Shown here one piece after another: positions 3,704 through 18,877 of a DNA stretch of 64,000 bases. Position numbers and translations under genes: made by a program. The notes under the pieces are model-generated. The model ran no database searches. It had not been told where the DNA came from and saw only the letters and a program-made list of their open reading frames with translations. This stretch comes from Candidatus Latescibacterota bacterium (GTDB lineage: Bacteria; Latescibacterota; UBA2968): the NCBI GenBank assembly GCA_965116885.1, contig OZ220741.1:640001-704000 (forward strand), read 5' to 3'. Position 1 is the first letter of the stretch; each line of letters starts with the position of its first letter.

Positions 3704-3996
3704 TTGTAGCTCTATAACATAGATTAGAGACGATCTAATTATTGTTGGACTATATATCGCCCAATTTTTTGAAAAATTGTTTGGTAATGTTTATGGTGAC
3801 ATATATATTGTGAACTCTCTCAAAAATAATTGATGATTTATACATACTCCTCCAAAATTTTGTGAATCATACATCAACCACTCAGACCTGTCCCATTAGA
3901 TGCTACGGAGTCTATTACAAACAGTCAGAGATTAAAATTTTAAAAATACTGTTTTAGACTACAAAATTCAATGAAATGACTCAAGAGGATAAAGAT

Positions 3997-5640
3997 ATGC
4001 AACACAAATTGGTCGCTGTAGTCGGCAACACACCACAAGTTATGACAGAAATCTTCTGGGCATTGCGTGTCCAGCACAAAGTGCCCATCGATGAAGTATT
4101 TTTGATAACGACAACAGAAGGACAAAAAACCTGCCAAGAACGCCTTTTGGATGAAGGTCGCTTTGACAAGATGTTGTCGGATTACAAGATCGATCCCAAT
4201 ACTGTCGCGTTCAAGCCCGATCATATCCATGTATTTGAAGATGCTGAAGGCAATTTTTTAGACGACATCCGCACCTCAGAAGATAATCGTCTGGCTCGGG
4301 ACCAACTTTTCCGATGGATTGAAAATTGGACGAAGAATGCCCATGTCGCTTTACACTGCTCGCTCGCAGGTGGACGTAAGTCAATGGGATACTTACTCGG
4401 AGCTGCTATCCAATTTTTTGGTCGGTCACAAGATCGCCTGTATCATGTGCTGGTCACGCCACAAGCAATTGAAACAAATCCCGATTTTTTCTTTCCACCC
4501 GTGCACGAAGCGCAAATCCCCACATCAGACGGACAAAAAATTTCTACTGCTGATGTACGTATTGAATTGGCTGAATTGCCTTATGTATCCGTAAGAGATA
4601 TATCCGCATTTGACGATGAAAACTATGACCTAATTCTACAGAAAACGCAAGCAGAAGTGAGACGTGTTCCACGTCTAAGAGCAGAAAACAAACGGCTGAG
4701 AGAAACATCGGGCAATGCTGGCGGCTTGATCGGAAATAGCTTTGCAATGCAAAAAACCAAAGACCGGATTCGACAAGTTGCTGGTGCAGATGATGCAACC
4801 GTGTTGATTTTGGGTGAAACGGGAACGGGTAAAGAGCGCGCAGTTGCAGCACTACATGAACAGAGTACGAGAAAAAATAAACCATTCATAGCAGTTAACT
4901 GCGGTGCATTTCCAGGTGAACTTTTGGATGTAGAGCTATTCGGTGCGGTTCCAGGTGCTTATACCGGACAAGCCGGACCGCGTGAGGGTGCTTTTCGCGC
5001 AGCTAATGGCGGGACCCTTTATCTTGATGAAATCGGAGAATTATCACATGAAGGGCAGGCGAAGCTGTTGCGCGTATTACAAGAAAAGAAAGTGCGCCCG
5101 GTTGGCAGTGATAAACAAGAGGAAGATGTTGATGTACGCATTGTTGCGGCGACCAATCGCGACTTGAAGGCCAGAGTTCAAGAAAAAGCTTTCCGAGAAG
5201 ACCTGCTGTACCGCCTCAATGTTTGGACCATTGAAATGCCACCGTTGCGAGAACGACGCGAAGATATACCGGAGTTAATCGACCTGTTTTGTGAACAATT
5301 TAATGAAAAATACAAACGCAATGTTGTGGGCTTTGATGCCCCAGCCATAGAAGCTATGTGTCGCTACACCTGGCCGGGCAATGTGCGCGAGCTTGAACAT
5401 GAAGTTGAGCGCATCGTCATTGCTGCCCCACAGAGTGCATTTCGCGTACATAAGGAAGACATAGCCAGGCATATTATTGAATCATCAGATTTAGACACGG
5501 GTAGTGGGACACTCAAAGAGCAAGTGGCGCAGTTTAAGAAGCAGAAGATTCAGGAAATACTGGCGCAAACTCAGGGCAGTGTTAAACGCGCCGCGAATAT
5601 ATTGGGTATTAATGAATCAACGGTGAGCCGAAATCGGTAA
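3997..5640 (+). CDS. NE0113-family CARF domain fused to sigma54-dependent enhancer-binding protein (AAA+ and Fis-type HTH)
   Basis: N-terminus: VAVVGNTPQVMTEIFWAL, DDIRTSEDN, HCSLAGGRKSMG, GRSQDRLYHVLV, FFFP (Cas NE0113-type CARF motifs). C-terminus: Walker A GETGTGKE, ELFG, GAYTGQ (GAFTGA-loop variant), Walker B LYLDEI, RIVAATNRDL, FREDLLYRL, WPGNVREL, HTH AANILGINESTV. RBS GAGGA favours ATG 3997; alternative ATG at 3976. Confidence 0.88.
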   Translation: MQHKLVAVVGNTPQVMTEIFWALRVQHKVPIDEVFLITTTEGQKTCQERLLDEGRFDKMLSDYKIDPNTVAFKPDHIHVFEDAEGNFLDDIRTSEDNRLARDQLFRWIENWTKNAHVALHCSLAGGRKSMGYLLGAAIQFFGRSQDRLYHVLVTPQAIETNPDFFFPPVHEAQIPTSDGQKISTADVRIELAELPYVSVRDISAFDDENYDLILQKTQAEVRRVPRLRAENKRLRETSGNAGGLIGNSFAMQKTKDRIRQVAGADDATVLILGETGTGKERAVAALHEQSTRKNKPFIAVNCGAFPGELLDVELFGAVPGAYTGQAGPREGAFRAANGGTLYLDEIGELSHEGQAKLLRVLQEKKVRPVGSDKQEEDVDVRIVAATNRDLKARVQEKAFREDLLYRLNVWTIEMPPLRERREDIPELIDLFCEQFNEKYKRNVVGFDAPAIEAMCRYTWPGNVRELEHEVERIVIAAPQSAFRVHKEDIARHIIESSDLDTGSGTLKEQVAQFKKQKIQEILAQTQGSVKRAANILGINESTVSRNR

Positions 5641-5726
5641 AGAGTAAAGGATAGAGTGAGGGATCGCGGTCATCTCGCCTGCATGGATTTACAGAGAAAA
5701 TCCCAAAAATATGAGTTATAAAAGGC

Positions 5727-5761
5727 GTGCATTTTTGCCTATCGCACAGGCAAAAATGCCT
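5727..5761. promoter_or_regulatory. putative upstream activator sequence 1: two 14-bp quasi-palindromes GTGCATTTTTGCCT and AGGCAAAAATGCCT, 21 bp apart
   Basis: The first box starts 134 bp upstream of the -24 GG; the same arrangement recurs at 7061-7095. Confidence 0.7.
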
Positions 5762-5807
5762 GTTTGAACATCTCATCGTTCATTTCCTGTTTCAAAAAAA
5801 TATCACA

Positions 5808-5820
5808 CAACCTGTTGTTT
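5808..5820 (-). promoter_or_regulatory. IHF-like site in sigma54 cassette 1
   Basis: Minus strand AAACAACAGGTTG, one mismatch to WATCAANNNNTTR, located between the UAS and the -24/-12 box. Confidence 0.5.
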
Positions 5821-5859
5821 TTTTTGATCTCTGAGGAAATTCGGAGATTTTTTTGTGTT

Positions 5860-5875
5860 TGGCACGCGATTTGCA
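5860..5875 (+). promoter_or_regulatory. sigma54 (-24/-12) promoter upstream of cas6
   Basis: TGGCACGCGATTTGCA is an exact TGGCAC-N5-TTGC consensus (GG-N10-GC). Confidence 0.88.
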
Positions 5876-6053
5876 AATAGAAACTGTCAGAATCAGGATG
5901 GGCAGGATGCAAGGATGATCAGGATACCCCCGACCCCACCCAGGGGGTTAGATACCGCAACACATCCGTCGAGATGACCGGAAGATCCCATTTAGTCATG
6001 CATTTGGGCCTATAGATGGGCGCAGAGATTATCCACTATTCAAGGAGATATTG

Positions 6054-7013
6054 ATGTTTGACCTGAAACTCGCGTATATGCGCCTCCATTTCAAAGCGCG
6101 GGGCCATCTGCGCCTGCCTCCTTATAAAGGCTCCACATTTCGCGGGGCTTTTGGCGTGTCATTTAAGCGCGCGGTCTGTATTGTGCAACACGGCGAATGC
6201 GAGCGGTGTCTGATTCGGGCGCAATGCGTGTATCCATACGTATTTGACACACCAGTAGATAATGCACAGGGCATATTTCGAGGGTATCAAGAGGCACCGC
6301 ATCCCTATCTGATCGAACCCCCACTGGAAACAAAAACCGATTACGCGCCAGGCGACGAATTTGCCATTGGTCTGACCTTGATAGGCCGCGCACTGAATTA
6401 TATGCCCTACTTCATCTATACATTCCAGCGAATGGGAGACACAGGTCTTGGACGCGGACGCGGCAAATGCGATCTCATATCGGGCGAAGCACTACACCCG
6501 GATGGGACGTGGCAGAAGGTTTACGACGGAGCGAGCGAAATGTTGCAACAAGACGTACCCCATTTGACCGCACAGGATCTGATGCACAACGATATAGGAT
6601 CTCGGATTCGCCTCTCATTTGTAACACCTACCCAACTCAAAGCAGACCAAATATTGCAGCGCGGATTGGATTTCCCCGTACTCGTACGCGGGTTATTGCG
6701 GCGGTATTCGGCACTGGCCGCATTTCACGCAGACGGACCGCCAGATATAAATTATGCCGACTATATCTCGGCGGCAGAGAATATTCAAACCACATCCCAC
6801 AATTTGACCTGGCGCACCTGGGAGCGGTATTCAAACCGCAAGAACCGACGCATGAGCGTGAGCGGTTTTACAGGAGATGTGGTCTTTGAAGGCGACATGA
6901 CACAATTTCACCCCCTGCTGGCCCTGGGCGTGCCGATACACGTTGGCAAGTTGACCAGCTTTGGGATGGGGCAATACGCTATAAAAGGAAGAAGGGTGAA
7001 GGGTGAAGGGTGA
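6054..7013 (+). CDS. cas6: CRISPR pre-crRNA processing endoribonuclease Cas6
   Basis: GSTFRGAFG, Cys cluster CIVQHGECERCLIRAQCVY, PHPYLIEPP, C-terminal G-rich loop HVGKLTSFGMGQY; AAGGAG RBS. Confidence 0.9.
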   Translation: MFDLKLAYMRLHFKARGHLRLPPYKGSTFRGAFGVSFKRAVCIVQHGECERCLIRAQCVYPYVFDTPVDNAQGIFRGYQEAPHPYLIEPPLETKTDYAPGDEFAIGLTLIGRALNYMPYFIYTFQRMGDTGLGRGRGKCDLISGEALHPDGTWQKVYDGASEMLQQDVPHLTAQDLMHNDIGSRIRLSFVTPTQLKADQILQRGLDFPVLVRGLLRRYSALAAFHADGPPDINYADYISAAENIQTTSHNLTWRTWERYSNRKNRRMSVSGFTGDVVFEGDMTQFHPLLALGVPIHVGKLTSFGMGQYAIKGRRVKGEG

Positions 7014-7060
7014 AGGCAATAGCATGACCTGTTTTATTCCCAGCAGAAATTGTCAAACAA

Positions 7061-7095
7061 GTGCAAAATTGCACAGAGAACGTGCAGAAATGTAC
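7061..7095. promoter_or_regulatory. putative upstream activator sequence 2: GTGCAAAATTGCAC and GTGCAGAAATGTAC, 21 bp apart
   Basis: Same motif, same 21-bp spacing and same 134-bp distance to the -24 GG as UAS 1; both are followed by TTGAACAT. Confidence 0.7.
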
Positions 7096-7140
7096 GCTTG
7101 AACATGTTGGTGTCAATTTGATTTCAGAAAAAATATCGTA

Positions 7141-7153
7141 TAACATATTGTTT
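7141..7153 (-). promoter_or_regulatory. IHF-like site in sigma54 cassette 2
   Basis: Minus strand AAACAATATGTTA, one mismatch to WATCAANNNNTTR, at the position equivalent to cassette 1. Confidence 0.5.
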
Positions 7154-7193
7154 TCTCATAAATTAAAAAATAAATTCAAATTTTCCTCCATTT

Positions 7194-7209
7194 TGGCACG
7201 CGGATTGCA
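7194..7209 (+). promoter_or_regulatory. sigma54 (-24/-12) promoter upstream of DUF1232/YkvA gene (and possibly the cmr operon)
   Basis: TGGCACGCGGATTGCA is an exact TGGCAC-N5-TTGC consensus. Confidence 0.88.
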
Positions 7210-7271
7210 TAAACAAGAGGTGCTCGCAAAAAAGTTTTTAATCCGCAGTAAAAACCAAATGGAGGAATACC

Positions 7272-7622
7272 ATGAAGAATCGAAACAATCAAGGGTATAG
7301 GAAATATTATTCTCAGGACAGCTTCTGGAAAAAGTTGCTCAAATTCGCACGTACCGCGGGCCGGGAAGTCGTTGAGCATGCCCTATCACTCTACTACACC
7401 GCGCAAGCTCCCGACACACCTGCCTGGGCCAAAACGGTCATCACCGGGGCACTGGGGTACTTTATTCTTCCAGCCGATGCAATTCCCGACCTGATCCCGG
7501 CCGTCGGTTACGGCGATGACCTGGGTGCGCTGGCCGCAGCACTCGCAGCCGTGGCGGCTCATGTCACGCCTGAAATCAAAGCCCGCGCGAAAGAAAAAGC
7601 CGCTGAGTGGTTTGGTGAGTGA
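7272..7622 (+). CDS. YkvA / DUF1232 family small membrane-associated protein
   Basis: GGAGGA RBS; FWKKL, TPAWAK, GALGYFILPADAIPDLIPAVGYGDD family signature. Confidence 0.85.
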   Translation: MKNRNNQGYRKYYSQDSFWKKLLKFARTAGREVVEHALSLYYTAQAPDTPAWAKTVITGALGYFILPADAIPDLIPAVGYGDDLGALAAALAAVAAHVTPEIKARAKEKAAEWFGE

Positions 7623-7882
7623 AGTGTAATCCGCAGATGACGCAAATAAATAAAGAGGGGCTGGATAGACTGGCTGCTGACCGCTAAGAGTGGGAAGGAG
7701 ATGAACCACGTACTCTATTGCGCTATTTTCACAGGGATTGTATCCTGTGCAATTCAGGACATCAAGACCGCGTCCTTTGTTCGGTTTCAGAAAGTGGAGC
7801 GACCCACTGCGGTTATAAGAAACGACGTATAAAGAAATCTATGCAAGGAGACAATACGATTTAGTTCCAAAGGAGAAGCGTA

Positions 7883-8722
7883 ATGAATAGGACAGTGTTG
7901 AATCTTGAAACTGTAACACCAATGTTTTTACATGGTGAGAATAGTCGAAATCTCGAACTTCGACCACCGCCGTTCAAATCACTGATGCGTTATTGGTGGC
8001 GAACTGTGCAGGATTGCGAATGGAAATCGCTTCAGAAGGACGAAGCAAAATTATTTGGTAGCACAGATCGTAAAGCACCATTCTCAATTCGTATTTTAGG
8101 AGAAACGGAACTGGACCGTAGGCGCTATAAACCGTTGCCACATCGAACTGATAATCGTGGTTTTCAGACAGATGCGTATAAAGAGGGACAGTCATTTGAC
8201 CTGTATCTGATTACAAAAAACGGATCAAATACTTCGACTTATGAACAGATTGCAAAACTCGGCTTTTTGCTCGGCGGCGTTGGGAATCGATCACGACGTG
8301 GATTCGGTTCGATTCGTGAAACAAACTGGAATTTCACAGACGTTTCTGATCTACGGCAGGAAGTTTTGAATACTCTAAACGCTGTCGCAGGCACTAATCA
8401 TTTTCAGATGATGGGCCAGATCATTGAATCTAAACTCACTCGTTTTCCAGATTATCCTGTTATTATGTCTATCTATTTTGGCAATCCAACGCCCCAGATT
8501 GACACCCTATTAAGGAAAATCGGACAGGCGACTCATACTCATAAAGATGATGCTTTGGGTTATGCAAAAGGAAGACAACGGCTGGCTTCACCTATTCATG
8601 TTCGTATCCAGAAGATGGGATGGAAATATATTCCAATTGTGACCCAACTTTACTTTCCGAAATTCAAACCAGAGAATTTTGAACAAAAGCAAAAGGATTT
8701 TATTGACGCCATCATCACTTAG
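7883..8722 (+). CDS. cmr1: type III-B RAMP Cmr1
   Basis: LETVTPMFLHG, ELRPPPFKSLMRYWWR, EAKLFGS, LGGVGNRSRRGFGS, RLASPI. Confidence 0.9.
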   Translation: MNRTVLNLETVTPMFLHGENSRNLELRPPPFKSLMRYWWRTVQDCEWKSLQKDEAKLFGSTDRKAPFSIRILGETELDRRRYKPLPHRTDNRGFQTDAYKEGQSFDLYLITKNGSNTSTYEQIAKLGFLLGGVGNRSRRGFGSIRETNWNFTDVSDLRQEVLNTLNAVAGTNHFQMMGQIIESKLTRFPDYPVIMSIYFGNPTPQIDTLLRKIGQATHTHKDDALGYAKGRQRLASPIHVRIQKMGWKYIPIVTQLYFPKFKPENFEQKQKDFIDAIIT

Positions 8723-8732
8723 GAGGCTTTCT

Positions 8733-10619
8733 ATGAGTGGCAACCGGACGAAACGTCTCATGCTCATGTTTACAATTGGTCCTGTGCAATCGTTTATTGA
8801 AGCAGCTCGGAAGACAGAGGACTTGTGGATGGGGAGTTATATTCTGTCTTATCTTATCGCTAAAGCAATGGACAAAGTTCGTGGCGACGATATTGAGCTG
8901 ATATATCCCGCTATTGGAAACCAATCGCCATTTGAATTTTGGAAACAACAAGATTTCGCAACCCCATCTTTTCCAAATCTTTTTTTAGCAATTGGCAACG
9001 GTATTGAGGTTTCTCAGAATGCATTGATTGAACTCGCAAAAGATGCTGAACGTACTATAAAAACCGAATTTGAGCGAATGGCGGAATGTGTGATTGATAA
9101 GGCATTCAGCAACAAGTGGCGTGGTACTTATGTAGAGGAAGTGTTCAAGCGACAAATCTCGGATTTTTTTGATGTCTATTGGGTGATTACCCAAGAAGCA
9201 GAGCAAAATTACGGGGATTGGTACGATCACACCGCAAGCAATCTCGCAGCTATCAAAAATTGCCGAACATTCGCACAGATCCGTGAGTTTGGACGGAAGT
9301 GTTCACTTGATGGAACACGCGAAATTCTCCATTTGAGACAAGACGAAACTGTGCGAGAAGCAATGAAATGGTGGCAGGGCTTTGCTGAACGCGAACCGAA
9401 GTATTGCCGCAGGGAAGAGGCTCTGTGTGCCGTTTCATTAACCAAACGGATGGGAAGGCATTTTCTGGAGACCCAATCGGAATTTTCAGATCATTTTTCT
9501 ATTCAATCTCTGAACTTTCCATCTACATCGGAGATAGCTACAGCGGACTTCAAAGAACAATTCCAACTCAATATTGGGGCCTTAGGCATTTATGGAGATT
9601 TCGTTAAAGAAGTCAAAAAGTTGAGGACATTGGACAACAAACCAGCAGATATTCCAATTATTCAACCGTTACCAAAAATCGGGATGCTCCAGGGGAATAT
9701 TGATGGCGAGTGGCTGTACGAAGAGACTTGGAACGAGTCCTATCTAAGGCGTTACTACAACATTGATGCAAAAAACCAGAATAAACAGATTCAGACTTGT
9801 AAGAGATTGCACCATAAACTTGTCCAATGTCTTGGTGAACCGGGGCGATATTATGCTGCCATTGCACTTGATGGCGATAACATGGGCGAGAAGATTCGGG
9901 AAGCTAAATGCAAGGAAGACCATGAAAAACGCAGCAATGATCTGATTCAATATACGAAAGATGCTCGTCGGATTACTGAACAAGAGCATCTCGGAAAACT
10001 GACCTATGCGGGTGGTGACGACATCCTTGCACTCGCAAACCTCAAAGACCTCTTACCTATACTGAAAGGCTTGCGCGAAACATTTCCCAATTTCACGACT
10101 GCTTCGGTAGGTGTATGTATTGCCCACAATAAAGTTCCACTGGGAGAGGTGCTTCAGCAAGCGCGTCAAATGGAGAAAGTAGCGAAAAATGAAGGTGAAC
10201 GGAATGCTCTTGGAATCACGCTGTTTAAGCACTCCGGAAATATCAGCCAGACAGTAACAAAGTGGACGCCCGGCGATTTGGATGTGCTCAATATTAGTGA
10301 GGAGTTACTCAAATTATTGAGCGATAATGAAATTTCTAAGCGTTTTTTGTACGCTTTCCGTGAGACATTTGCCAAATTAATTGAAGACGAAGATGATTTC
10401 GGGGAACTGGGCCGTCACCTTATTCAAGCTGAGTTTGAACGGATTATGGAACGGGCACATTCGAACAAAAAAACAGAACTCAAAGAAAGTCAACAAACCA
10501 TCCATACACTTACTCAACTCATCTATCATATCCAGCCTTTCTCTCACTTTCTCGGATATTTAGAAATTATCAATTTCATTGCGAGGATAAAAAATGAAAC
10601 TGTTTCTCCAACCCAATGA
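8733..10619 (+). CDS. cas10: type III-B Cas10/Cmr2, Palm cyclase motifs intact, no HD domain
   Basis: ATG 8733 after AGGAGG; starts at FTIGPVQSFIEAARKTEDLWMGSYILS; FPSTSEIA, YYAAIALDGDNMG, YAGGDD, SVGVCIAH. Confidence 0.93.
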   Translation: MSGNRTKRLMLMFTIGPVQSFIEAARKTEDLWMGSYILSYLIAKAMDKVRGDDIELIYPAIGNQSPFEFWKQQDFATPSFPNLFLAIGNGIEVSQNALIELAKDAERTIKTEFERMAECVIDKAFSNKWRGTYVEEVFKRQISDFFDVYWVITQEAEQNYGDWYDHTASNLAAIKNCRTFAQIREFGRKCSLDGTREILHLRQDETVREAMKWWQGFAEREPKYCRREEALCAVSLTKRMGRHFLETQSEFSDHFSIQSLNFPSTSEIATADFKEQFQLNIGALGIYGDFVKEVKKLRTLDNKPADIPIIQPLPKIGMLQGNIDGEWLYEETWNESYLRRYYNIDAKNQNKQIQTCKRLHHKLVQCLGEPGRYYAAIALDGDNMGEKIREAKCKEDHEKRSNDLIQYTKDARRITEQEHLGKLTYAGGDDILALANLKDLLPILKGLRETFPNFTTASVGVCIAHNKVPLGEVLQQARQMEKVAKNEGERNALGITLFKHSGNISQTVTKWTPGDLDVLNISEELLKLLSDNEISKRFLYAFRETFAKLIEDEDDFGELGRHLIQAEFERIMERAHSNKKTELKESQQTIHTLTQLIYHIQPFSHFLGYLEIINFIARIKNETVSPTQ

Positions 10620-11763
10620 TACCTTCTTTTTTCGCGACGGGCGTCCTTTTACAAAAGGCGAACAGTCTGAAGGTCATTCAATTTTTCCACCCCTTCCCTC
10701 GACAGTTCTCGGTGCGTTGCGTACTGCATACATCGCTGAATTTGGTGATCTATCGCTTTTCTATTCCGGCGGGATGCGAGAGACGATTGGTACGCCAGAA
10801 TCACTGGACAATGCTATTCAAGTGCGCGGTGTTTTTCTTGCAAATAGGCGAAGCAATCAGATGGGTCGAATGGAAATATTTTTTCCAGTGCCACTTGATC
10901 TGGTATATAAAAAAATAGAAAAGAGAGATGATCATACCCTGCTTCATTTACTGACGCCGCAATCTAAAAATTTTGCGTCGAACGGGATAATCAGCACGCC
11001 TCTTACATGGCTAAATTCCGAGTCCATTGATTTCGATGCAGATGGATTGTTACGACTGGGGGCAATCACACGATACTTACAAGGAAACAGTCAGAACCTG
11101 CTTCTTACAAACCGAGCAACATTGGTTGAGCGCGAAACCAAAACGGGTATCGCGCGGGATAGACACACTTTGTCGTCCGAAGAACACATGTTGTATCGTA
11201 TTGATATGTCGAGATTTAAAAATAGAGATGGCAATTACGGCTTTGTGGTAGAATATGAATGCCCTATGAATTTGCCACAAAAAGGACTTTTGAAATTAGG
11301 TGGAGAAGGCAAAGGTTTTGTCTATCAGCACAGCAACTATGATATTGATCCACTGTCCAGCCGTCTTGAGGCAGTCAAACGAGCCATCCAATCAACAAAC
11401 AGATTCAAGCTATATTTTGCAACGCCGACCATATTCCGGAACGGATGGTTACCTTCATGGTTGAATAGCGATACGCTTTCGGGTGAATACCCACTGGAGA
11501 ATACAGCACCAATTTCACTCAAATTAATCACCGCCGCGGTTGGTAAACCTGTTCCTGTTGGCGGATGGGACATGGCAAAAGGTGAGGCAAAACCCAACTA
11601 TCGCGCAGTGCCTGCTGGCAGCGTCTATTACTTTGAATTGATGGATAAAAATCGAATTGATGATTTAATCGCCGCTTTTCACTACCAAAACATTAGCGAG
11701 GAGCGTTCTGAGGAGGGATTTGGACTTACTCTTATCGGTGTCGCACAGGAGGGAAATGCATGA
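10594..11763 (+). CDS. cmr3: type III-B RAMP Cmr3
   Basis: PNDTFFFRDGRPF, FPPLPSTVLGALRT, KLGGEGK, GGWDM, AVPAGSVYYF, EGFG. Confidence 0.92.
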   Translation: MKLFLQPNDTFFFRDGRPFTKGEQSEGHSIFPPLPSTVLGALRTAYIAEFGDLSLFYSGGMRETIGTPESLDNAIQVRGVFLANRRSNQMGRMEIFFPVPLDLVYKKIEKRDDHTLLHLLTPQSKNFASNGIISTPLTWLNSESIDFDADGLLRLGAITRYLQGNSQNLLLTNRATLVERETKTGIARDRHTLSSEEHMLYRIDMSRFKNRDGNYGFVVEYECPMNLPQKGLLKLGGEGKGFVYQHSNYDIDPLSSRLEAVKRAIQSTNRFKLYFATPTIFRNGWLPSWLNSDTLSGEYPLENTAPISLKLITAAVGKPVPVGGWDMAKGEAKPNYRAVPAGSVYYFELMDKNRIDDLIAAFHYQNISEERSEEGFGLTLIGVAQEGNA

Positions 11764-13010
11764 AGACGCTTATAACACCAGTCGGCACATCGCTCTTTAC
11801 AAACTATCTTGATGAGAATGGGGACAGTGCCTTTAGACACAATTATGAAACAATCAGAAGATCTCCCGCTTCGGAATGGGATGAGTATGATTATGAAATT
11901 GAGGATCTAAAAACGTCCAGTCTTGAATTTATTAAAAAAGAAAAGGAATCCGCGTCTGCGGAACTTCAGAGTATCGCTAAAATTCAAGAAAAATTCAAAG
12001 AGGACCTCGAAGTTCGTCTATTTGCCTCAGACACGATTGCTTCGCGATTGGCTGCGAAGATTTTAGCGGATGATAAAGTGGCTTCAGTTTTAGGCGATAA
12101 TATCTCTGTCACATTCGATACACAAACAGATGTGATCAAGGGGCTTCAGGTTGAAGATCCCAAAGTCTTTTCGCAGGAAGGCCTGTCCAACTTGATTCAA
12201 AAGATCAATTCGGCCAGCAATAATGCCGGGGGCTATCAGGAACTTGCTATCAATATCACCGGAGGGTTCAAAGCCACCTTGCCATATCTGACGATTTTGG
12301 CACAACTCAATCGTGTTCCACTTTACTACACATTTGAAGATACTGAAGCACTCATCTCGATTCCACAAGCACCGTTAGTTATTGATTGGGGTTTGATTGA
12401 ACGCTATTCCGACGTTCTCAGAAAAATTGATGAGGGAATAGGAAATTGGTCGGCATTCAGAAACCAACATTACCAGGCTGTTCAAGATTTGGAGGCATTC
12501 ATTGAAGTTGTTGACGAAATGGCATTTCTTTCCCCTATTGGCCAAATTTTCTGGAATCACTATCAAAGATACTTTATCGTCGAATTGCCAAGAGGAAGTT
12601 ATTTCAAATATGACTTCAGAGAACGCGGCTTGATTGATCAATCCATTGAAGAGCTTTATAGACGGTTAGACACCGTTCTAAGACCAGATCTTCTCGATCT
12701 GGTGAAGTGCTATAAACGCATTCGCGATTTGGGACATAATGATGACTTAAATCATACTGGACAAATCCCAAATCCTACGAGAAGTCCGAATCGAGAAATG
12801 TTCATTTTCAAATCGACAAATGAAGAGCAGATACGGTTGCTATACACCTTTAAGGTGAATGAACGAGAGATCACTCGGCTTACAATATTTGATCTTCTTT
12901 GTCGAGATTTTAACCACAGTACTTATTTTGATACATGGAAACGCAAATTTGGTCGTCAAAATTTTCCTGATATTGACTTTGTCACACGCACATTTGAAAT
13001 TCCTTCATAG
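11760..13010 (+). CDS. APE2256/SSO1393-family CARF protein with C-terminal probable RelE-like domain (Cami1-like effector or ring nuclease)
   Basis: TPVGTSLFTN, SAELQS, FASDT, INITGGFKA, LYYTFE CARF motifs; LSPIGQIFW wHTH-like linker; about 150-aa C-terminal domain with FIFKS, IRLLY and NHSTY. The RelE call is tentative. Confidence 0.75.
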   Translation: MKTLITPVGTSLFTNYLDENGDSAFRHNYETIRRSPASEWDEYDYEIEDLKTSSLEFIKKEKESASAELQSIAKIQEKFKEDLEVRLFASDTIASRLAAKILADDKVASVLGDNISVTFDTQTDVIKGLQVEDPKVFSQEGLSNLIQKINSASNNAGGYQELAINITGGFKATLPYLTILAQLNRVPLYYTFEDTEALISIPQAPLVIDWGLIERYSDVLRKIDEGIGNWSAFRNQHYQAVQDLEAFIEVVDEMAFLSPIGQIFWNHYQRYFIVELPRGSYFKYDFRERGLIDQSIEELYRRLDTVLRPDLLDLVKCYKRIRDLGHNDDLNHTGQIPNPTRSPNREMFIFKSTNEEQIRLLYTFKVNEREITRLTIFDLLCRDFNHSTYFDTWKRKFGRQNFPDIDFVTRTFEIPS

Positions 13011-13032
13011 GTTTTAACAAGGAGAAACCAAA

Positions 13033-13995
13033 ATGTTCAAACAAGCTAAACCCCTCTTTCTTATCGTCGAAACCCCACTCCACGCTGGTAGCGGTAATGA
13101 CTTGGGCATTGTTGATCTCCCGATCCAGCGGGAAAAGCATACGGATTATCCAAAAATCGAAGCATCTGGACTAAAGGGCAGCATACGTGAAATTTTTGAT
13201 GCTCAAGGAAATAAATCTGAAATCGATCTTGTATTCGGCCCCGAACAAGGCGACTTACACGCTGGTGCTTTGGGATTTACGGATGCACGTCTCTTGCTTT
13301 TCCCAGTCAAGTCGGTCAAAAACGTGTTTGCCTGGGTAACCTGTCCCGCAGTTTTAGAGCGTTTCAAACATGACCTTGCCATCTGTCAGCCGAATATTGA
13401 GTTTATTGATGATCTCCCCGATAGTGAGGCGGTGACGACAGAGAGCGAACTAATTATTAAGGATAATAAAATCGTGCTGGAAGAATACACATTCGCGGTT
13501 AGCCAAAACAAAGAATGTGATGCTATTGCAGATTGGATTATCGAAAACGTTCTGCCAAAGGATCCGGGCTACAATTATTGGCGCGATAAGATGAAACGAG
13601 ATATGGTCGTGTTGACCGATGATGATTTCCGTGATTTCGTAACGCTTTCGACAGAAGTCATTGCCCGCACCAAAATCGACAGTGAAACCGGTACCGTTGC
13701 AAAAGGTGCGCTGTGGTACGAGGAATACTTGCCGACTGACTCTATTCTCTATTCGCTTGCCTTGACCACACCCATCTTTAAGGAAAATGACGCCGATAAA
13801 GGTATTTTCCAATTGACCGATCAGGATAAAGAAGAGAAACGCGATGAGTCGGAAAAGGTAATGGACTTCTTTGTGGATGGATTGCCGAATGTCATTCAGA
13901 TCGGCGGCAATGCAACCGTGGGCAAGGGTATAGTTCGTACACACGTTTATCAAAATGGAGGAGAAAACCATGCCACAAACTCCGACAATGCGTAA
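13033..13995 (+). CDS. cmr4: type III-B RAMP Cmr4 (target RNase)
   Basis: ETPLHAGSG, IVDLPIQRE (catalytic Asp present), DARLLLFPVKS, LWYEEYLP, QIGGNATVGKG. Confidence 0.95.
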   Translation: MFKQAKPLFLIVETPLHAGSGNDLGIVDLPIQREKHTDYPKIEASGLKGSIREIFDAQGNKSEIDLVFGPEQGDLHAGALGFTDARLLLFPVKSVKNVFAWVTCPAVLERFKHDLAICQPNIEFIDDLPDSEAVTTESELIIKDNKIVLEEYTFAVSQNKECDAIADWIIENVLPKDPGYNYWRDKMKRDMVVLTDDDFRDFVTLSTEVIARTKIDSETGTVAKGALWYEEYLPTDSILYSLALTTPIFKENDADKGIFQLTDQDKEEKRDESEKVMDFFVDGLPNVIQIGGNATVGKGIVRTHVYQNGGENHATNSDNA

Positions 13996-14368
13996 GGGAA
14001 TTGAACAAGGGCGTGCCAAGTACGCTTTTGAGGCAGTGAGCAGTGTTAATGGTGACAGATTGAAGAAAGAGTATAAATCCGCGGCAAAGAAACTCCCCGT
14101 CTTAATAAAAACGAATGGACTTGGGCAGTCTTTGGCATTCATTAAGAAAAGGAATAACGGGCACGACAGGCTATACGAACAAGTTGGAAACTGGCTCCAA
14201 GCCGTAGATACCAAACAGTTGGTTTCGACTGGCGAACTTGTGGAACAAGTCATCGAACTCAAATCACCCGACTATCGGCAAGTTACTGTCGAAACGCTCG
14301 CACTACTCAATTGGATTCGCCGATTTGTCGATGGACTCATGGATGATGTGGAGGAGAATGATGCTTAA
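13970..14368 (+). CDS. cmr5: type III-B small subunit Cmr5
   Basis: EQGRAKYAF, YKSAAKKLPVLIKTNGLGQSLAF, WIRRF; ATG 13970 after GGAGGAG. Confidence 0.92.
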   Translation: MPQTPTMRKGIEQGRAKYAFEAVSSVNGDRLKKEYKSAAKKLPVLIKTNGLGQSLAFIKKRNNGHDRLYEQVGNWLQAVDTKQLVSTGELVEQVIELKSPDYRQVTVETLALLNWIRRFVDGLMDDVEENDA

Positions 14369-15443
14369 TTTCCATCCATTGGATACGAGGGAACTGGTTC
14401 GCTCAAATAATCAGATTGATAATTTCGCGTTGCGTTACCGACATTCCTTGCAGGTTACTCGCGATGGTGAGAAATACAAATTTCAACTTTCCGATCCGAC
14501 GTTTAGTAAATCTTATGATGAATTGATTGAGCAGTTGCGAGAACGTCAAACAGAGCAATTTCTCCAATTTGTTATGCAGGATATCAGGCTTTACTGCGTT
14601 GATGCAACAGTTGATTGGCGACTAATTGTTGGCCTCGGCAGTGAGCATGTTCAAGAGACAAACATGACACTTCATCATATCTACGGCATTCCGTACATTC
14701 CCGGAAGTGCCGTGAAAGGCGTGTTGCGGCATTGGTGGGTGCAAGAGGATTTCGACAACAACGAAGACAAAGCACTGAAAGATAAAAATTTTCTCGCTCT
14801 CTTTGGAAGTCAAAAACGGCGCGGAGAAGTGCAATTTCTTGACGCCTATCCTGAGCAAGTCCATTTTGCGAAAGATATTATGAATCCACACTATCCCGAA
14901 TATTACAGTGGTAGCGCACCACCAACAGATTCTCAAAATCCAAGACCTATCAATTTTTTAACTGTTGAGAAGACCGCCTTTCGGTTCGCTTTCTTAGCGA
15001 AGAAGCAGAAACTTCTCGATAAACTCAAGGCACGATTTGAAGATGTATTAGAGCTGAAGGGCATCGGTGCGAAAACAGCGGTTGGCTATGGGTATTTCCG
15101 AAATTTTGAAGATCAGACCGACAAAATTATTGACACATTCAAGCGTCAACAACAAGCTGAACGGGAAGAAGCGGAAAGACAGCAAGAAGCCGAGAGATTG
15201 GCAAGTCTTTCTCCTGTCGAACAAATTGTCGAAGAATTGAATGGTCTCGCTGACAATTCTGTGGATGAAGCGCGTGTTACCGATATCTACAACATAGAAC
15301 TCCTATCTCTTGAAGGAGATGATCAACAGATGGTCGCACAGGCATTGAAAGCTTATTGGGAACGTATCAATAAGTGGAGTGGCGGTTCGAGGAAACAGAG
15401 AACAAAGGTGCAAAAGGTTAAGTCAATTTTGGGAGAGAGTTGA
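14358..15443 (+). CDS. cmr6: type III-B RAMP Cmr6
   Basis: RLIVGLG, HHIYGIPYIPGSAVKGVLR, FLDAYP, DIMNPHY, PINFL, GIGAKTAVGYG; start 14358 or 14361. Confidence 0.93.
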   Translation: MMLNFHPLDTRELVRSNNQIDNFALRYRHSLQVTRDGEKYKFQLSDPTFSKSYDELIEQLRERQTEQFLQFVMQDIRLYCVDATVDWRLIVGLGSEHVQETNMTLHHIYGIPYIPGSAVKGVLRHWWVQEDFDNNEDKALKDKNFLALFGSQKRRGEVQFLDAYPEQVHFAKDIMNPHYPEYYSGSAPPTDSQNPRPINFLTVEKTAFRFAFLAKKQKLLDKLKARFEDVLELKGIGAKTAVGYGYFRNFEDQTDKIIDTFKRQQQAEREEAERQQEAERLASLSPVEQIVEELNGLADNSVDEARVTDIYNIELLSLEGDDQQMVAQALKAYWERINKWSGGSRKQRTKVQKVKSILGES

Positions 15444-16179
15444 CTATAGTAATCTGGCAAAAATCTTTGGTGAACGGGTGGGTGAAACAGGAGCAGACTT
15501 TTGTGCGATCAACGCCACAGGTGGCTATAAAGCCCAGATCGCCATTGCCGTTCTGATGGGCCAGGCACTCGACATTCCAGTGTATTACAAACATGAACGC
15601 TTTGATGCCATTATCCCGTTTCCACCTATGCCAGTGGCACTCGATTTTTCAATCTGGCAGCGGGCCAGTGGCATGTTTATGGTACTCGGCAAAGGCGACA
15701 TTATTCCGTGGGAGCAGTATCGTGAGGATTGGGATGAACGATTTGAGCCACTGGTCAATCGCGAGGAAATTGATGGCGAGGACTATCTGGAACTCTCGGC
15801 GACGGGACAGATCTTTCACGAGACCTTCCGAACCCGTTTTCAGCAGATAAAGGCCCACAGTCTTCCGCGACCAGCAACAGATAATGAGAAGTAAGCCCCC
15901 AATCTGGGCAATCACGGATACGGACAAGCTCAGACTCCCATTTTGCGGTTCCTGCAAAAGCTTACTGATGAGGTCCCTTACATCCGCTTTTGCCACTCAA
16001 CGTATTGGAACCCGGACCTGCCTGAATCAACCCGGTTTCGGTCATCGGGCGGAGAAGTCCAGGGCATATACTCCAATGGAACCTGGTGCGTGAAGTTTAA
16101 GGTGCATACAACATCAGATGATCAGGAGGTATTACCCGGCATTGTGGCCGATCTCAACGACTGGATAGAGAAAGGTTAA
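15444..16179 (+). pseudogene. decayed second APE2256-family CARF gene (5' truncated, in-frame TAA at 15892-15894)
   Basis: Has INATGGYKAQ and VYYKHERF but lacks the N-terminal VGTS/SAE motifs and a proper start; ORFs 15379..15894 and 15943..16179 are in the same frame, separated by a single TAA. Confidence 0.8.
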
Positions 16180-16460
16180 AAGAGAGTTTTCAGTTTGATT
16201 GAAGCCAGTGGATGCGACCCAGAGGCGTCGATCAATGTCATGCTGGCAGCTTGAGCGTGTAGCGAACAACGCGCGTGAGGATTATAGGCATTTCCTCAAG
16301 TTCTGGTGGGTCGCAAATTTCTAACTTTTTGCAGGAGTGTGTATTATGAACAAAGAATCGAAAGCAATTTTTCATTTTTGGGAGGATTTTGTATGTCAAA
16401 ATGGCCTGAGTCGCAAACCGCCTTGTAACTATCTGTAACAGAGGGAATAACACAGACGGT
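16180..16460 (+). promoter_or_regulatory. CRISPR leader
   Basis: AT-rich non-coding stretch directly 5' of the first repeat with repeated GTCGCAAA motifs; the repeat orientation ending in ATTGAAAC puts the leader on this side. Confidence 0.65.
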
Positions 16461-18877
16461 ATCAGGAAGGATTACCCGACTACTGGGGTATTGAAACTTC
16501 TTTGACAAACTGCTTGCCATAGGCATCCACATTGTCATCAGGAAGGATTACCCGACTACTGGGGTATTGAAACATAACCCTTACCTTTCCTGTCTTGTGC
16601 TCCGTGGATATATCATCAGGAAGGATTACCCGACTACTGGGGTATTGAAACTTGGTCGCGCGCACGTATCCCTAAGGGCTTATTAAACACATCAGGAAGG
16701 ATTACCCGACTACTGGGGTATTGAAACTTGTTTGTGATGATCATATAGATGCGCTTGGCCTCTTCAAAATCAGGAAGGATTACCCGACTACTGGGGTATT
16801 GAAACAGGTCTGAGTTGACTTCTTTGAGCTGGTTTGTCATGTTTCGATCAGGAAGGATTACCCGACTACTGGGGTATTGAAACTCATACGTCTCAAGGAT
16901 ACCATGGTCACAGAAATATTCTGCCCATCAGGAAGGATTACCCGACTACTGGGGTATTGAAACTTTACTTGCGAAGTAGCCATTGCCAAATCTCCTTATG
17001 TGATCAGGAAGGATTACCCGACTACTGGGGTATTGAAACCGTTCAATCGAAACCTCATCATCATATCCGTACATTACCATCAGGAAGGATTACCTGACTA
17101 CTGGGGTATTGAAACAATTTTGCGTCTTGCAAGGTCTTGTATGTGCCTATCAATTCATCAGGAAGGATTACCCGACTACTGGGGTATTGAAACCAACGTC
17201 CCAAATTCGGTTTCTGATTTCCAGGCATCAGGAAGGATTACCCGACTACTGGGGTATTGAAACTAATTGGGAAAGTAATGACGATCTGGTGCATAGAAAC
17301 AATCAGGAAGGATTACCCGACTACTGGGGTATTGAAACTTAACGCGGCGTGTAAAAGGATTGTTCTTTTTTCGATTAGCCATTTTTATCAGGAAGGATTA
17401 CCCGACTAATGGGGTATTGAAACACAATAGCGATTGCCGCTTGCAACTCCTGTGCCGTGTATATCAGGAAGGATTACCCGACTAATGGGGTATTGAAACT
17501 CGTTATGGTTGGGCTGCTCCCGAATAGAGGCTTCCGCATCATGAAGGATTACCTGACTATTGGGGTATTGAAACATCATATGAGCGTACATCATCGGAAC
17601 CTGGGGCGGCGGATTGATCATGAAGGGTTACCCAACTACTGGGGTATTGAAACTTGTAGATTTTATCAAACCAGTTGCGCTGAGGATCCATCAATCAGGC
17701 AGGACTACCCGATTATTGAGGTATTGAAACCCGATTCACAGGTTCTTCCAATACGCTTCCGCACCGTGAACCAGGAAGGGTTACCTGCTTACTGGGGTAT
17801 TGAAACACATATGGACCACGGTCATTGACACGAACAATCACCGCTTATCAGGAAGAATTACTCGCCTATTGGGGTATTGAAACATCGCGTGAAGCGTGCC
17901 AAGGCCCACGCATCCGTCCATCAGGCAGGAGTACCCGATTACTGGGGTATTGAAACTCATTTTCTGTTTTCTCTTGAATGAAGTTACCATCGGACGTAAT
18001 CAGGAAGGACTATCTGCTTATTGGGATATTGAAACGTGCCGGTCATGACCATGCCTGCCAAGCAGACATGACATTCAGGAAGGATTACTCGCTTACTGGG
18101 GTATTGAAACTTATCAAGTGCGCTATCACAATCGTCGAACACAATCAAGATCAGGCAGGACTACCCGACTAATGGGGTATTGAAACGTGTACGACATCTC
18201 GCCAATCAGGTCGGGACCGATCAGCCGTCAGGCAGGACTACCCGATTACTGGGGTATTGAAACCCGTCAACACTCTTCTTGGCATACAGCGTTGCCATAC
18301 CTTGAATCAGGAAGGATTACCCGACTAATGGGGGATTGAAATCCAGGGTAGTTTTTGTGTTTCTCGATGTCCACACCAAATCAGGAAGGATTACCTGCTT
18401 ACTGGGGTATTGAAACGCCATTTCAATTGGGTACGTGTCAAACTTGATAAAACCCATCAGGAAGGATTACCCGACTAATGGGGTATTGAAACTTACCTCC
18501 GTGTGAAATTGGTATCGGTCTGTCTCGTCCCATCAGGAAGGATTACCCGACTAATGGGGTATTGAAACGCCTGTTGCGCTATGATTGCGTTCAGGGATTC
18601 GATCTTGTCAATCAGGAAGGATTACCCGACTAATGGGGTATTGAAACCGATCTACGCCGGGGCGAGAATTGATATTTGTCTGGATGAATCAGGAAGGATT
18701 ACCCGACTAATGGGGTATTGAAACTTGTCAAGTGCACGTTTCACGGTCATGTGTGAACATTGTATCAGGAAGGATTACCCGACTAATGGGGTATTGAAAC
18801 TTGACGGCATCGTACAACGCCTTCTGGATTGTGTCCAGATATCAGGAAGGATTACCCGACTAATGGGGTATTGGAAC
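16461..18877 (+). CRISPR. CRISPR array: 32 repeats of 37 nt, consensus ATCAGGAAGGATTACCCGACTA(C/A)TGGGGTATTGAAAC, 31 spacers of about 33-48 nt
   Basis: Counted by hand: first repeat 16461-16497, last (ending TTGGAAC) 18841-18877; internal stem TACCC/GGGTA; 3' ATTGAAAC handle typical of Cas6-processed repeats. Confidence 0.98.

Follow-up and report, generated by a model that had tools for sequence, protein, structure and literature searches.

A CARF5-sigma54 activator probably controls its own type III-B CRISPR locus in a Candidatus Latescibacterota bacterium

Several described regulators join a CARF-superfamily sensor to transcription. RtcR is a sigma54 activator of rtcBA with the order CARF, AAA+ and helix-turn-helix (HTH) (PMC7790460, PMC9650030), and the RtcR-like PspF1 and PspF2 CARF-AAA-HTH activators adjoin restriction-modification and CoCoNuT operons (PMC4012209, PMC11090510; PADLOC PDLC01994/01995). 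Among proteins tied to cyclic oligoadenylates (cOA), Csa3a and Csa3b are archaeal cOA-binding CARF-HTH factors controlling adaptation and interference genes (PMC8844856, PMC7480081), CalpL-CalpT-CalpS turns cyclic tetra-adenylate (cA4) into a bacterial transcriptional response when a SAVED-protease frees a sigma factor (PMC11229360), and the CARF-adenosine deaminase Cad1 binds and cleaves cA4 (PMC11645235, PMC12669630). Here we analyze a 64,000-nt stretch of a Candidatus Latescibacterota genome (GCA_965116885.1, contig OZ220741.1, 640,001-704,000, forward strand; hereafter the window, whose numbering is used for all coordinates), in which a 547-amino-acid (aa) protein combining a CARF5/NE0113 sensor with a sigma54 activator stands at the head of a type III-B CRISPR locus. 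Judging from sequence, this locus probably switches on its own defence genes when an invader is detected.

The protein shares with RtcR its domain order, its predicted sigma54 mechanism and an N-terminal CARF-superfamily domain expected to gate the ATPase. It differs in that its CARF is of the CARF5/NE0113 type and keeps a basic motif-II residue mostly absent from RtcR-type CARFs (PMC4012209), its putative targets are cas genes rather than rtcBA, and its predicted ligand is cOA rather than tRNA halves. PspF1 and PspF2 are likewise CARF-gated sigma54 activators heading a defence operon, for which a feedback loop has been proposed, but their CARF is unmatched in the window protein, whose cargo is a type III locus able to make the signal itself. 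Stand-alone NE0113 proteins and Cad1 belong to the same sensor family, and the motif-II lysine aligns with Cad1 K106, while the output domain in the window is a transcription activator. Csa3a and Csa3b resemble it as cOA-binding transcription factors acting on CRISPR genes (the ligand being a prediction for the window protein), but are archaeal, lack ATPase, sigma54 and enhancer, and serve mainly type I-A loci. Compared with CalpL-CalpT-CalpS, a single protein is predicted to couple sensing to sigma54 open-complex formation, with promoters and binding sites readable from the DNA. No CARF5-sigma54 activator in a type III locus was found in a literature search whose scope left out most subscription papers and the Makarova 2020 CARF classification. 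Overall, we see a real and conserved, apparently undescribed variant, a sigma54 activator that carries a sensor of the cOA class and is wired to the CRISPR locus in which it lies.

The sensor and motor of the activator

The activator gene and its motifs lie as follows, all on the + strand.

3997..5640, +: CARF5/NE0113 sensor, sigma54 enhancer-binding AAA+ and Fis-type HTH, 547 aa, by profile matches (a start at 3976 is also possible)
4024..4038, +: CARF motif I
4366..4386, +: CARF motif II, AGGRKSM
4813..4836, +: Walker A
4954..4971, +: GAYTGQ loop
5017..5034, +: Walker B
5191..5214, +: R-fingers
5371..5391, +: sensor II
5602..5637, +: recognition helix

Pfam profiles on 3997-5640 recovered Cas_NE0113 (E 2.7e-37), Sigma54_activat (E 1.1e-62), AAA_lid_14 and HTH_8 (26.7 bits, cut-off 22), in agreement with an original prediction, made from the letters of the window, of an NE0113-type rather than RtcR-type CARF fused to a complete sigma54 AAA+/HTH module. 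The sensor also matched TIGR02584 (174 bits, cut-off 80.65), and the PADLOC CARF5 model matched at E 2e-72, and at E 5e-73 over aa 1-208. No match to the PADLOC RtcR, PspF1 or PspF2 models was obtained for aa 1-208; these models reach only aa 227-545, i.e., the AAA-HTH part, and behave likewise in eight homologs. Specifically, the RtcR model NF038308 scored 306.6 bits against a cut-off of 650 and covered aa 229-523 only, the PADLOC RtcR model covered aa 241-493 only, and PspF1/PspF2 matches began at model position 152-163, leaving model positions 1-151 (their CARF) unmatched in the window protein and matched by only short linker stretches in the eight homologs. The best PADLOC score on the AAA-HTH part came from an RtcR_PspF-type model (E 2e-103), yet membership in RtcR or PspF2 is ruled out because those models miss the CARF. 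These profiles assign the sensor to the cOA class of CRISPR systems rather than to the RtcR type, and the only CARF5 architectures among the PADLOC matches were CARF, CARF_TM and CARF_ADA.

The best PDB sequence matches of the CARF domain were to Cad1 (9ebt) and weak (E 0.024); from its title and numbering we take this entry to be TaqCad1. Residue counting in that weak alignment places K128 of the activator opposite K106 of the Cad1 chain, and K128 is retained in 109 of 112 fusion sequences. In TaqCad1, a K106A change largely abolished cA4 binding, and the enzyme also degrades cA4 (PMC12669630). A single-sequence model of the CARF (predicted local distance difference test score, pLDDT, 52) returned Cdn1, Card1, Csm6 and Can2 on top at Z 8-9, tied with other Rossmann folds. 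NCBIfam names the TIGR02584 family 'ring nuclease Csm6', and we take NE0113 to be equal to Csx14. Under that name, a predicted ring nuclease has been placed in the Crn1 family (PMC12409355). By analogy with these proteins and with RtcR, we infer cA4 binding, the direction of regulation and ring-nuclease activity of the CARF.

The ATPase motifs of the motor and the CARF motifs are intact. Across 112 fusion sequences, the Walker A lysine was present in all, the Walker B DE in 106 and the loop threonine in 99 (misses being mostly fragments), with both R-fingers and sensor II almost invariant. Fold searches placed the AAA+ domain closest to FleQ, NtrX and NtrC4 (Z about 30; root-mean-square deviation 1.7 to FleQ), and searches with the full activator model returned the AAA+ part alone. 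The sigma54-contact loop reads GAYTGQ instead of GAFTGA, with T kept, F changed to Y and the final A to Q; in PspF, Y is the sole substitute for this F that still activates (PMC2941729). Plain GAFTGA occurs in several of the more distant fusions. Ratios of non-synonymous to synonymous substitution rates (dN/dS, from 7 and 5 genes of two subclades) were 0.15-0.18 for the CARF, 0.26-0.29 for the AAA+ and 0.38-0.45 for the HTH.

When 19 of the host's 24 other activators were placed in a tree with the fusions, AAA+ modules from the different subclades did not group as one clade against them, and a single origin of this module was rejected since the starred branches force at least two changes; the CARF tree is compatible with one origin. 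C-terminal forms are common to different subclades, and the form in the window recurs in at least seven other clusters. Given the split AAA+ modules and the shared C-termini, the gene looks mosaic.

Promoters, enhancers and the genes behind them

The control region of the locus comprises two promoters, each with upstream elements.

5727..5761, strand not assigned: P1 enhancer, two degenerate GTGCA-N4-TGCAC palindromes (5727-5740 and 5748-5761), 133 and 112 nt before the box
5808..5820, -: IHF-like site of P1, by consensus
5826..5856, +: terminator-like hairpin with T-run directly before P1 (-11.2 kcal/mol, z -3.15)
5859..5875, +: sigma54 promoter P1 (-24/-12), exact box facing cas6, 179 nt before it
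7061..7095, strand not assigned: P2 enhancer, tandem palindromes (7061-7074 and 7082-7095), 133 and 112 nt before the box
7141..7153, -: IHF-like site of P2, by consensus
7193..7209, +: sigma54 promoter P2 (-24/-12), exact box facing ykvA and the cmr operon, 63 nt before ykvA

Both boxes read TTGGCACG-N4-TTGCA exactly, as had been predicted for the positions before cas6 and before ykvA/cmr, and a chance origin is ruled out, with no match in 100 shuffles. The host genome (G000; G and L numbers are our handles for genomes and loci), one contig of 5.56 Mb that is 98% complete, encodes rpoN, so that the case of a host lacking this sigma factor, named in the original prediction as a ground for abandoning it, does not apply; it also has four IHF/HU-family genes. 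About 25 sigma54 activators and 55 strict sigma54 boxes were detected in this genome, and for 10 of the 25 activators a box lies no more than 1.5 kb downstream. Finding a box after an activator gene is thus ordinary in this host, and the question is whether P1 and P2 belong to the CARF activator.

The locus-specific feature is the enhancer and not the sigma54 boxes alone. Boxes in relatives carry an upstream tandem palindrome GTGCA-N4-TGCAC, usually 133 and 112 nt away, and a matrix trained on other genomes only ranked P2 first (34.8) and P1 second (16.0) among the 55 host boxes, the next scoring 4.5. The P2 enhancer is the best tandem site across the 5.56-Mb genome, and this enhancer was found at none of the other 53 host boxes. 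In its exact form, the tandem enhancer occurred at six sites in 41 genomes, all at fusion loci, against none for reversed-pattern controls. This specificity ties P1 and P2 to the CARF activator, and we infer from the sequence pattern that the activator HTH binds the tandem enhancer.

Of 21 boxes examined in activator loci, one of them a reverse-strand or P3 type site, 17 have an IHF-like site 43-53 nt upstream, the four misses being P3 promoters (see below), compared with 0.7% of random 90-mers and 12 of 36 such host boxes. The hairpin before P1 may stop read-through from the activator gene; a similar one precedes P3 of G017, it is weak or absent at the other three of five sites folded, and no + strand terminator-like site was found between 7209 and 8029. 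Predicted sigma70-like promoters were at chance level (13 found, 21.9 expected) and uninformative, and a metatranscriptome with 8% of words yielded contigs from a relative, intergenic DNA included, from which no level, strand or start was readable, and was not used. A different 14-bp site, in tandem some 100 nt upstream, recurs at eight other sigma54 promoters of the host, which form a separate large regulon (boxes in G000:C1 at 23867, 268367, 581228, 1195593, 1208445, 1229614, 1234849 and 4854526).

Behind P1 and P2 lies a type III-B set, including cmr1-6, cas6, an array and a Cas10 with GGDD.

6051..7013, +: cas6 (start 6051 TTG or 6054 ATG)
7272..7622, +: ykvA/DUF1232 small protein, first gene after the promoter in most relatives
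7883..8722, +: cmr1, profile match
8733..10619, +: cas10/cmr2, GGDD at 10011-10022 (aa 427), without HD domain
10594..11763, +: cmr3, profile match
11760..13010, +: CARF7-RelE (Cami1-like) effector inside the cmr operon (PADLOC CARF7--CARF_RelE, E 1.3e-102; PDB 8phb, E 1e-14)
13033..13995, +: cmr4
13970..14368, +: cmr5
14358..15443, +: cmr6
15451..16179, +: broken second CARF7 (APE2256/DUF2103-type) gene, first ~132 codons missing, internal stop at 15892-15894
16461..18877, +: CRISPR array, 32 repeats of 37 nt, ending in ATTGAAAC

Pfam identified Cmr2_N, palm2 and mCpol in Cas10; no Pfam HD domain was detected, nor an HD pair in the first 120 aa, consistent with the predicted combination of intact GGDD and no HD nuclease. 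This is the only cas10 found in the host genome. The Cami1-like CARF-RelE family is cA4-activated (PMC11229360). The broken CARF7 gene is 92% identical to aa 133-372 of an intact 374-aa gene in G012. In ESM Atlas, YkvA fell among DUF1232 clusters and the activator fusion among generic sigma54 activators. No tblastn match to the Cas1 or Cas2 of relatives was found in the 98%-complete genome; this adaptation module is not required for interference. The 31 spacers had no match in the rest of the host genome, hence no self-targeting, and no sigma54 box was found for the array itself in the window. Within the array, the most degenerate repeats lie in the middle (17529-18430), flanked by clean repeats of two sequence types, as if two arrays had been joined. 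An 83-nt stretch in its leader region repeats the beginning of the upstream DMFA2_C gene at 87% identity (393-475 and 16332-16414).

The same wiring in relatives

A homolog search with the activator returned 356 matches, and among the 120 listed, Cas_NE0113 and Sigma54_activat occur together in 104. For this gene, the closest named relative is a Candidatus Latescibacterota metagenome-assembled genome (90% identity). Eight further, more distant fusions (28-48% identity) came from a profile search against representatives clustered at 50% identity; seven of them show both Pfam domains and one is cut at its N-terminus, and all are known here from their protein sequences. The full activator gene was present in 7 of 40 relatives, and 168 genomes of the phylum yielded four more complete copies, from another family, and three that lie at the ends of contigs. 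In each of the 12 genomes whose fusion gene is complete, a box lies 137-280 nt past the activator stop codon and is accompanied by one or more enhancer palindromes. Eleven of them have a cas10 operon of type III-A, III-B or III-D-like downstream, and in the twelfth (G011) the contig ends in cas6. The GGDD motif is kept in 13 of 13 Cas10 proteins neighbouring fusion loci. No rtcB/rtcA target operon was found in the 12 genomes, the downstream genes being cas6, ykvA and cas10 operons.

Two gene orders were observed. In the host genus, the activator is followed by P1, cas6, in some cases P2 and ykvA, and the cas10 operon; in the second family, cas6 precedes the activator, followed by a promoter, in some cases ykvA, and the cas10 operon. 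Since the order differs between the two families, the interference operon emerges as the constant target. The box would directly drive cas6-csm1 in G012 and a ykvA-cas10 operon in G146, G101 and G141. In 8 of the 12 genomes, ykvA is the leading gene after a box, either its own or the main one; in a ninth (G015) it comes immediately after cas6, and in G012 and G133 the box is followed by no ykvA. P3, a third box bearing this same enhancer, precedes a repeat and a TPR-primase gene in five genomes (G017, G015, G020, G019 and G012), followed by cas1 and cas2 in at least G017 and G012; P3 is absent from G014, and the P3 adaptation module is lost in the window. These layouts show the cas10 operon, and in five genomes the adaptation genes, to be putative targets of the activator.

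Loci without the fusion provided a control. Seven regions of the same genus with nine cas10 matches but no fusion had no box plus enhancer (0/7), and 16 stretches around fusion-less cas10 genes yielded a single box-like match, outside the cas genes and without enhancer. In G047, G054 and G044, stand-alone NE0113 genes without boxes lie between cas6 and csm1, and this slot suggests where the fusion may have arisen. Further afield, a scan of genome contigs found one fusion and six stand-alone CARFs among seven loci, a metagenome scan found one fusion (L055) among 80 loci kept, five of which were read, and 10 plasmid records matched, all annotated as ring nuclease genes and none as a fusion. L056 was rejected as a fusion, its activator being unrelated.

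Several other observations concern the content and fate of these loci. The same activator-promoter head stands before III-A, III-B and III-D-like cas10 operons in close relatives (L015-L026, L135-L144), so that, to judge from the gene content, interference modules have been swapped while the control region ahead of them stays the same. Cargo behind the promoters of relatives includes an EcsC-family gene (L020:2590-3222), a dynamin-like GTPase pair within an array region (L022:7934-11819) and a 12-kb block of unidentified genes before csm1 (L135:5160-17175). A 515-533-aa protein with two tandem NE0113-type CARFs occurs in III-D-like loci with and without the activator (L023:8480-10051, L041:525-2126, L047:11448-12995). 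The TPR and AEP primase gene before cas1-cas2 (L016:2540-4465, L026:9178-10986, L157:904-2925), which presumably resembles a CRISPR-associated primase-polymerase, is under a sigma54 promoter in fusion loci, and sister loci lack such a promoter. Finally, remnants of the activator gene (first 23-27 codons, 80-89% identity) lie directly 5' of a DMFA2_C-family gene in relatives (G009:C1:1050260, G005:C29:47140, G002:C1:5221050, G011:C84:12080, G020:C1:5246768), including three genomes without a type III locus at that site, and are possibly scars of locus loss or duplication.

A cOA-switched circuit and its alternatives

Every step of the original interpretation that could be tested in sequence held, i.e., the CARF class, the presence of rpoN, type III homologs with GGDD Cas10, and the boxes. 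We consider it likely that the 547-aa protein is a dedicated sigma54 activator of its own type III locus, switched on by cOA and most likely by cA4. In such a circuit, Cmr present at a low basal level would find target RNA, upon which Cas10 would make cA4; cA4 would bind the CARF5 dimer via the GGRK motif and lift repression of the AAA+ domain, as the ligand does in RtcR. The enhancer-bound activator would then oligomerise and, with IHF-type looping, open P1 (cas6) and P2 (ykvA, cmr1-6, cas10 and the Cami1-like toxin), and in relatives also P3 (primase-cas1-cas2). More Cmr and CRISPR RNA would yield more cA4, a positive feedback that would couple detection to spacer acquisition, and the CARF, by slowly cleaving cA4, may itself reset the loop.

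A number of observations weigh against this model. Sigma54 promoters are normally tight, and the only cas10 of the host genome lies behind P2, so that basal expression must come from leakage or from another promoter (the priming problem). The P1 enhancer is degenerate and ranks ninth genome-wide, and a relaxed enhancer pattern matched 17 sites in 132 genomes, 10 inside fusion loci and 7 outside; no sigma54 box lies beside the four of these seven that were inspected. Structurally, the case is weakest at the recognition helix: of the domains, the HTH is under the least constraint, the helix diverges widely among homologs while the enhancer hardly changes, and in the window subclade the C-terminus stops abruptly at this helix. 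Moreover, the 12 genomes are kin from two families and represent about two or three independent cases, and the counts therefore show co-inheritance and co-loss rather than twelve independent events. Lastly, the predicted association of homologs with type III loci stood for cas10 (11/12) and for nearby boxes (12/12) but not for the distant metagenomic homolog L055 (43% identity), which has three similar palindromes and a near-consensus box, yet precedes a DUF4258-like open reading frame (E 0.04) on a 6.5-kb contig without any cas gene. This homolog is good evidence for the pairing of activator and enhancer, and neutral or adverse for a universal CRISPR link; the type III link may not extend to the whole fusion family. 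The small DUF4258-like frame spans L055:6241-6525, with a PIN-domain gene upstream.

The priming problem would be avoided if the same activator and promoters responded to something other than intact cOA, such as A2>P, RNA ends with a 2',3'-cyclic phosphate, or a partner such as YkvA. Cyclic-phosphate ends would come from RNases or other stress, making the locus inducible by a general infection signal. RtcR binds cyclic-phosphate tRNA halves and oligomerises (PMC7790460), cyclic-phosphate RNA has been proposed for RtcR-like activators of defence operons (PMC11090510), and L055 has no visible cas neighbour. However, the sensor is a CARF5 with the putative cA4-binding lysine and no match to an RtcR or PspF CARF, neighbouring Cas10 proteins invariably keep GGDD, and stand-alone NE0113 genes fill the same cas6-X-cas10 slot in related genomes, and we regard this explanation as unlikely.

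Somewhat less probable again is an inverse or neutral logic, in which the activator is on by default and cOA turns it down, as a negative feedback limiting toxicity, or in which the CARF is a ring nuclease riding on a constitutive activator. This too would solve the priming problem, and is in line with the ring nuclease name of the CARF family in NCBIfam and the Crn1 placement of Csx14 (PMC12409355); in addition, the F-to-Y change in the NorR loop partly escapes repression and could make the GAYTGQ clade leaky. Yet the unliganded CARF of RtcR represses and its ligand activates (PMC7790460), a constitutive role needs no sigma54 given that sister type III loci do without one, and the CARF is kept while the origin of the AAA+ domain differs between subclades, suggesting selection on the coupling.

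We find it improbable that another of the ~25 host sigma54 activators drives P1 and P2, or that the window copy of the activator is decaying. The variable recognition helix, abrupt C-terminus, degenerate P1 enhancer, lost cas1/cas2 and broken second CARF gene could be read in this way, and similar tandem sites of 14 bp at this distance are common among the activators of the host. Against another activator, the enhancer is found at none of the 53 other host boxes and its exact tandem form in no genome without the fusion; against decay, HTH_8 passes its cut-off, the same C-terminal form recurs in at least seven other clusters, and all domains have dN/dS < 0.5. Finally, a mainly transcription-level effector, compatible with the favoured explanation, in which selection favours the output of a small protein, toxic or acting on membranes (YkvA/DUF1232 in the window, the DUF4258-like protein in L055) with the cas genes as passengers, would fit the frequent first position of ykvA (8/12 genomes, and after cas6 in G015) and the different small gene at that position in L055, but is very improbable given that G012 and G133 lack ykvA behind the box, that separate enhancer-bearing promoters are kept for cas6 and for primase-cas1-cas2, and that our literature search found nothing linking DUF1232 to CRISPR.

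The locus bears on the ways in which type III systems might increase their expression upon infection and on a possible influence of detection on spacer acquisition. A 2024 census set transcriptional regulators aside (PMC11229360). A stretch of 3.3 kb in the locus described here suffices to recognise sensor, activator, promoters and binding sites alike. We see an evenly balanced case for a self-inducing type III circuit in which cA4, made once a target is recognised, directly activates a sigma54 protein that raises crRNA processing, interference, toxins and spacer acquisition together, assembled more than once by joining CARF5 to different activator modules. If true, cOA would reach transcription by a path other than those of Csa3 and CalpL/T/S, and the circuit would act as a switch-like immune amplifier that resets itself. 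It would also provide a compact, genetically encoded cA4-to-transcription converter, with which type III signalling or an RNA of choice could be sensed live. For type III systems themselves, it would amount to a transcriptional form of 'primed' adaptation.

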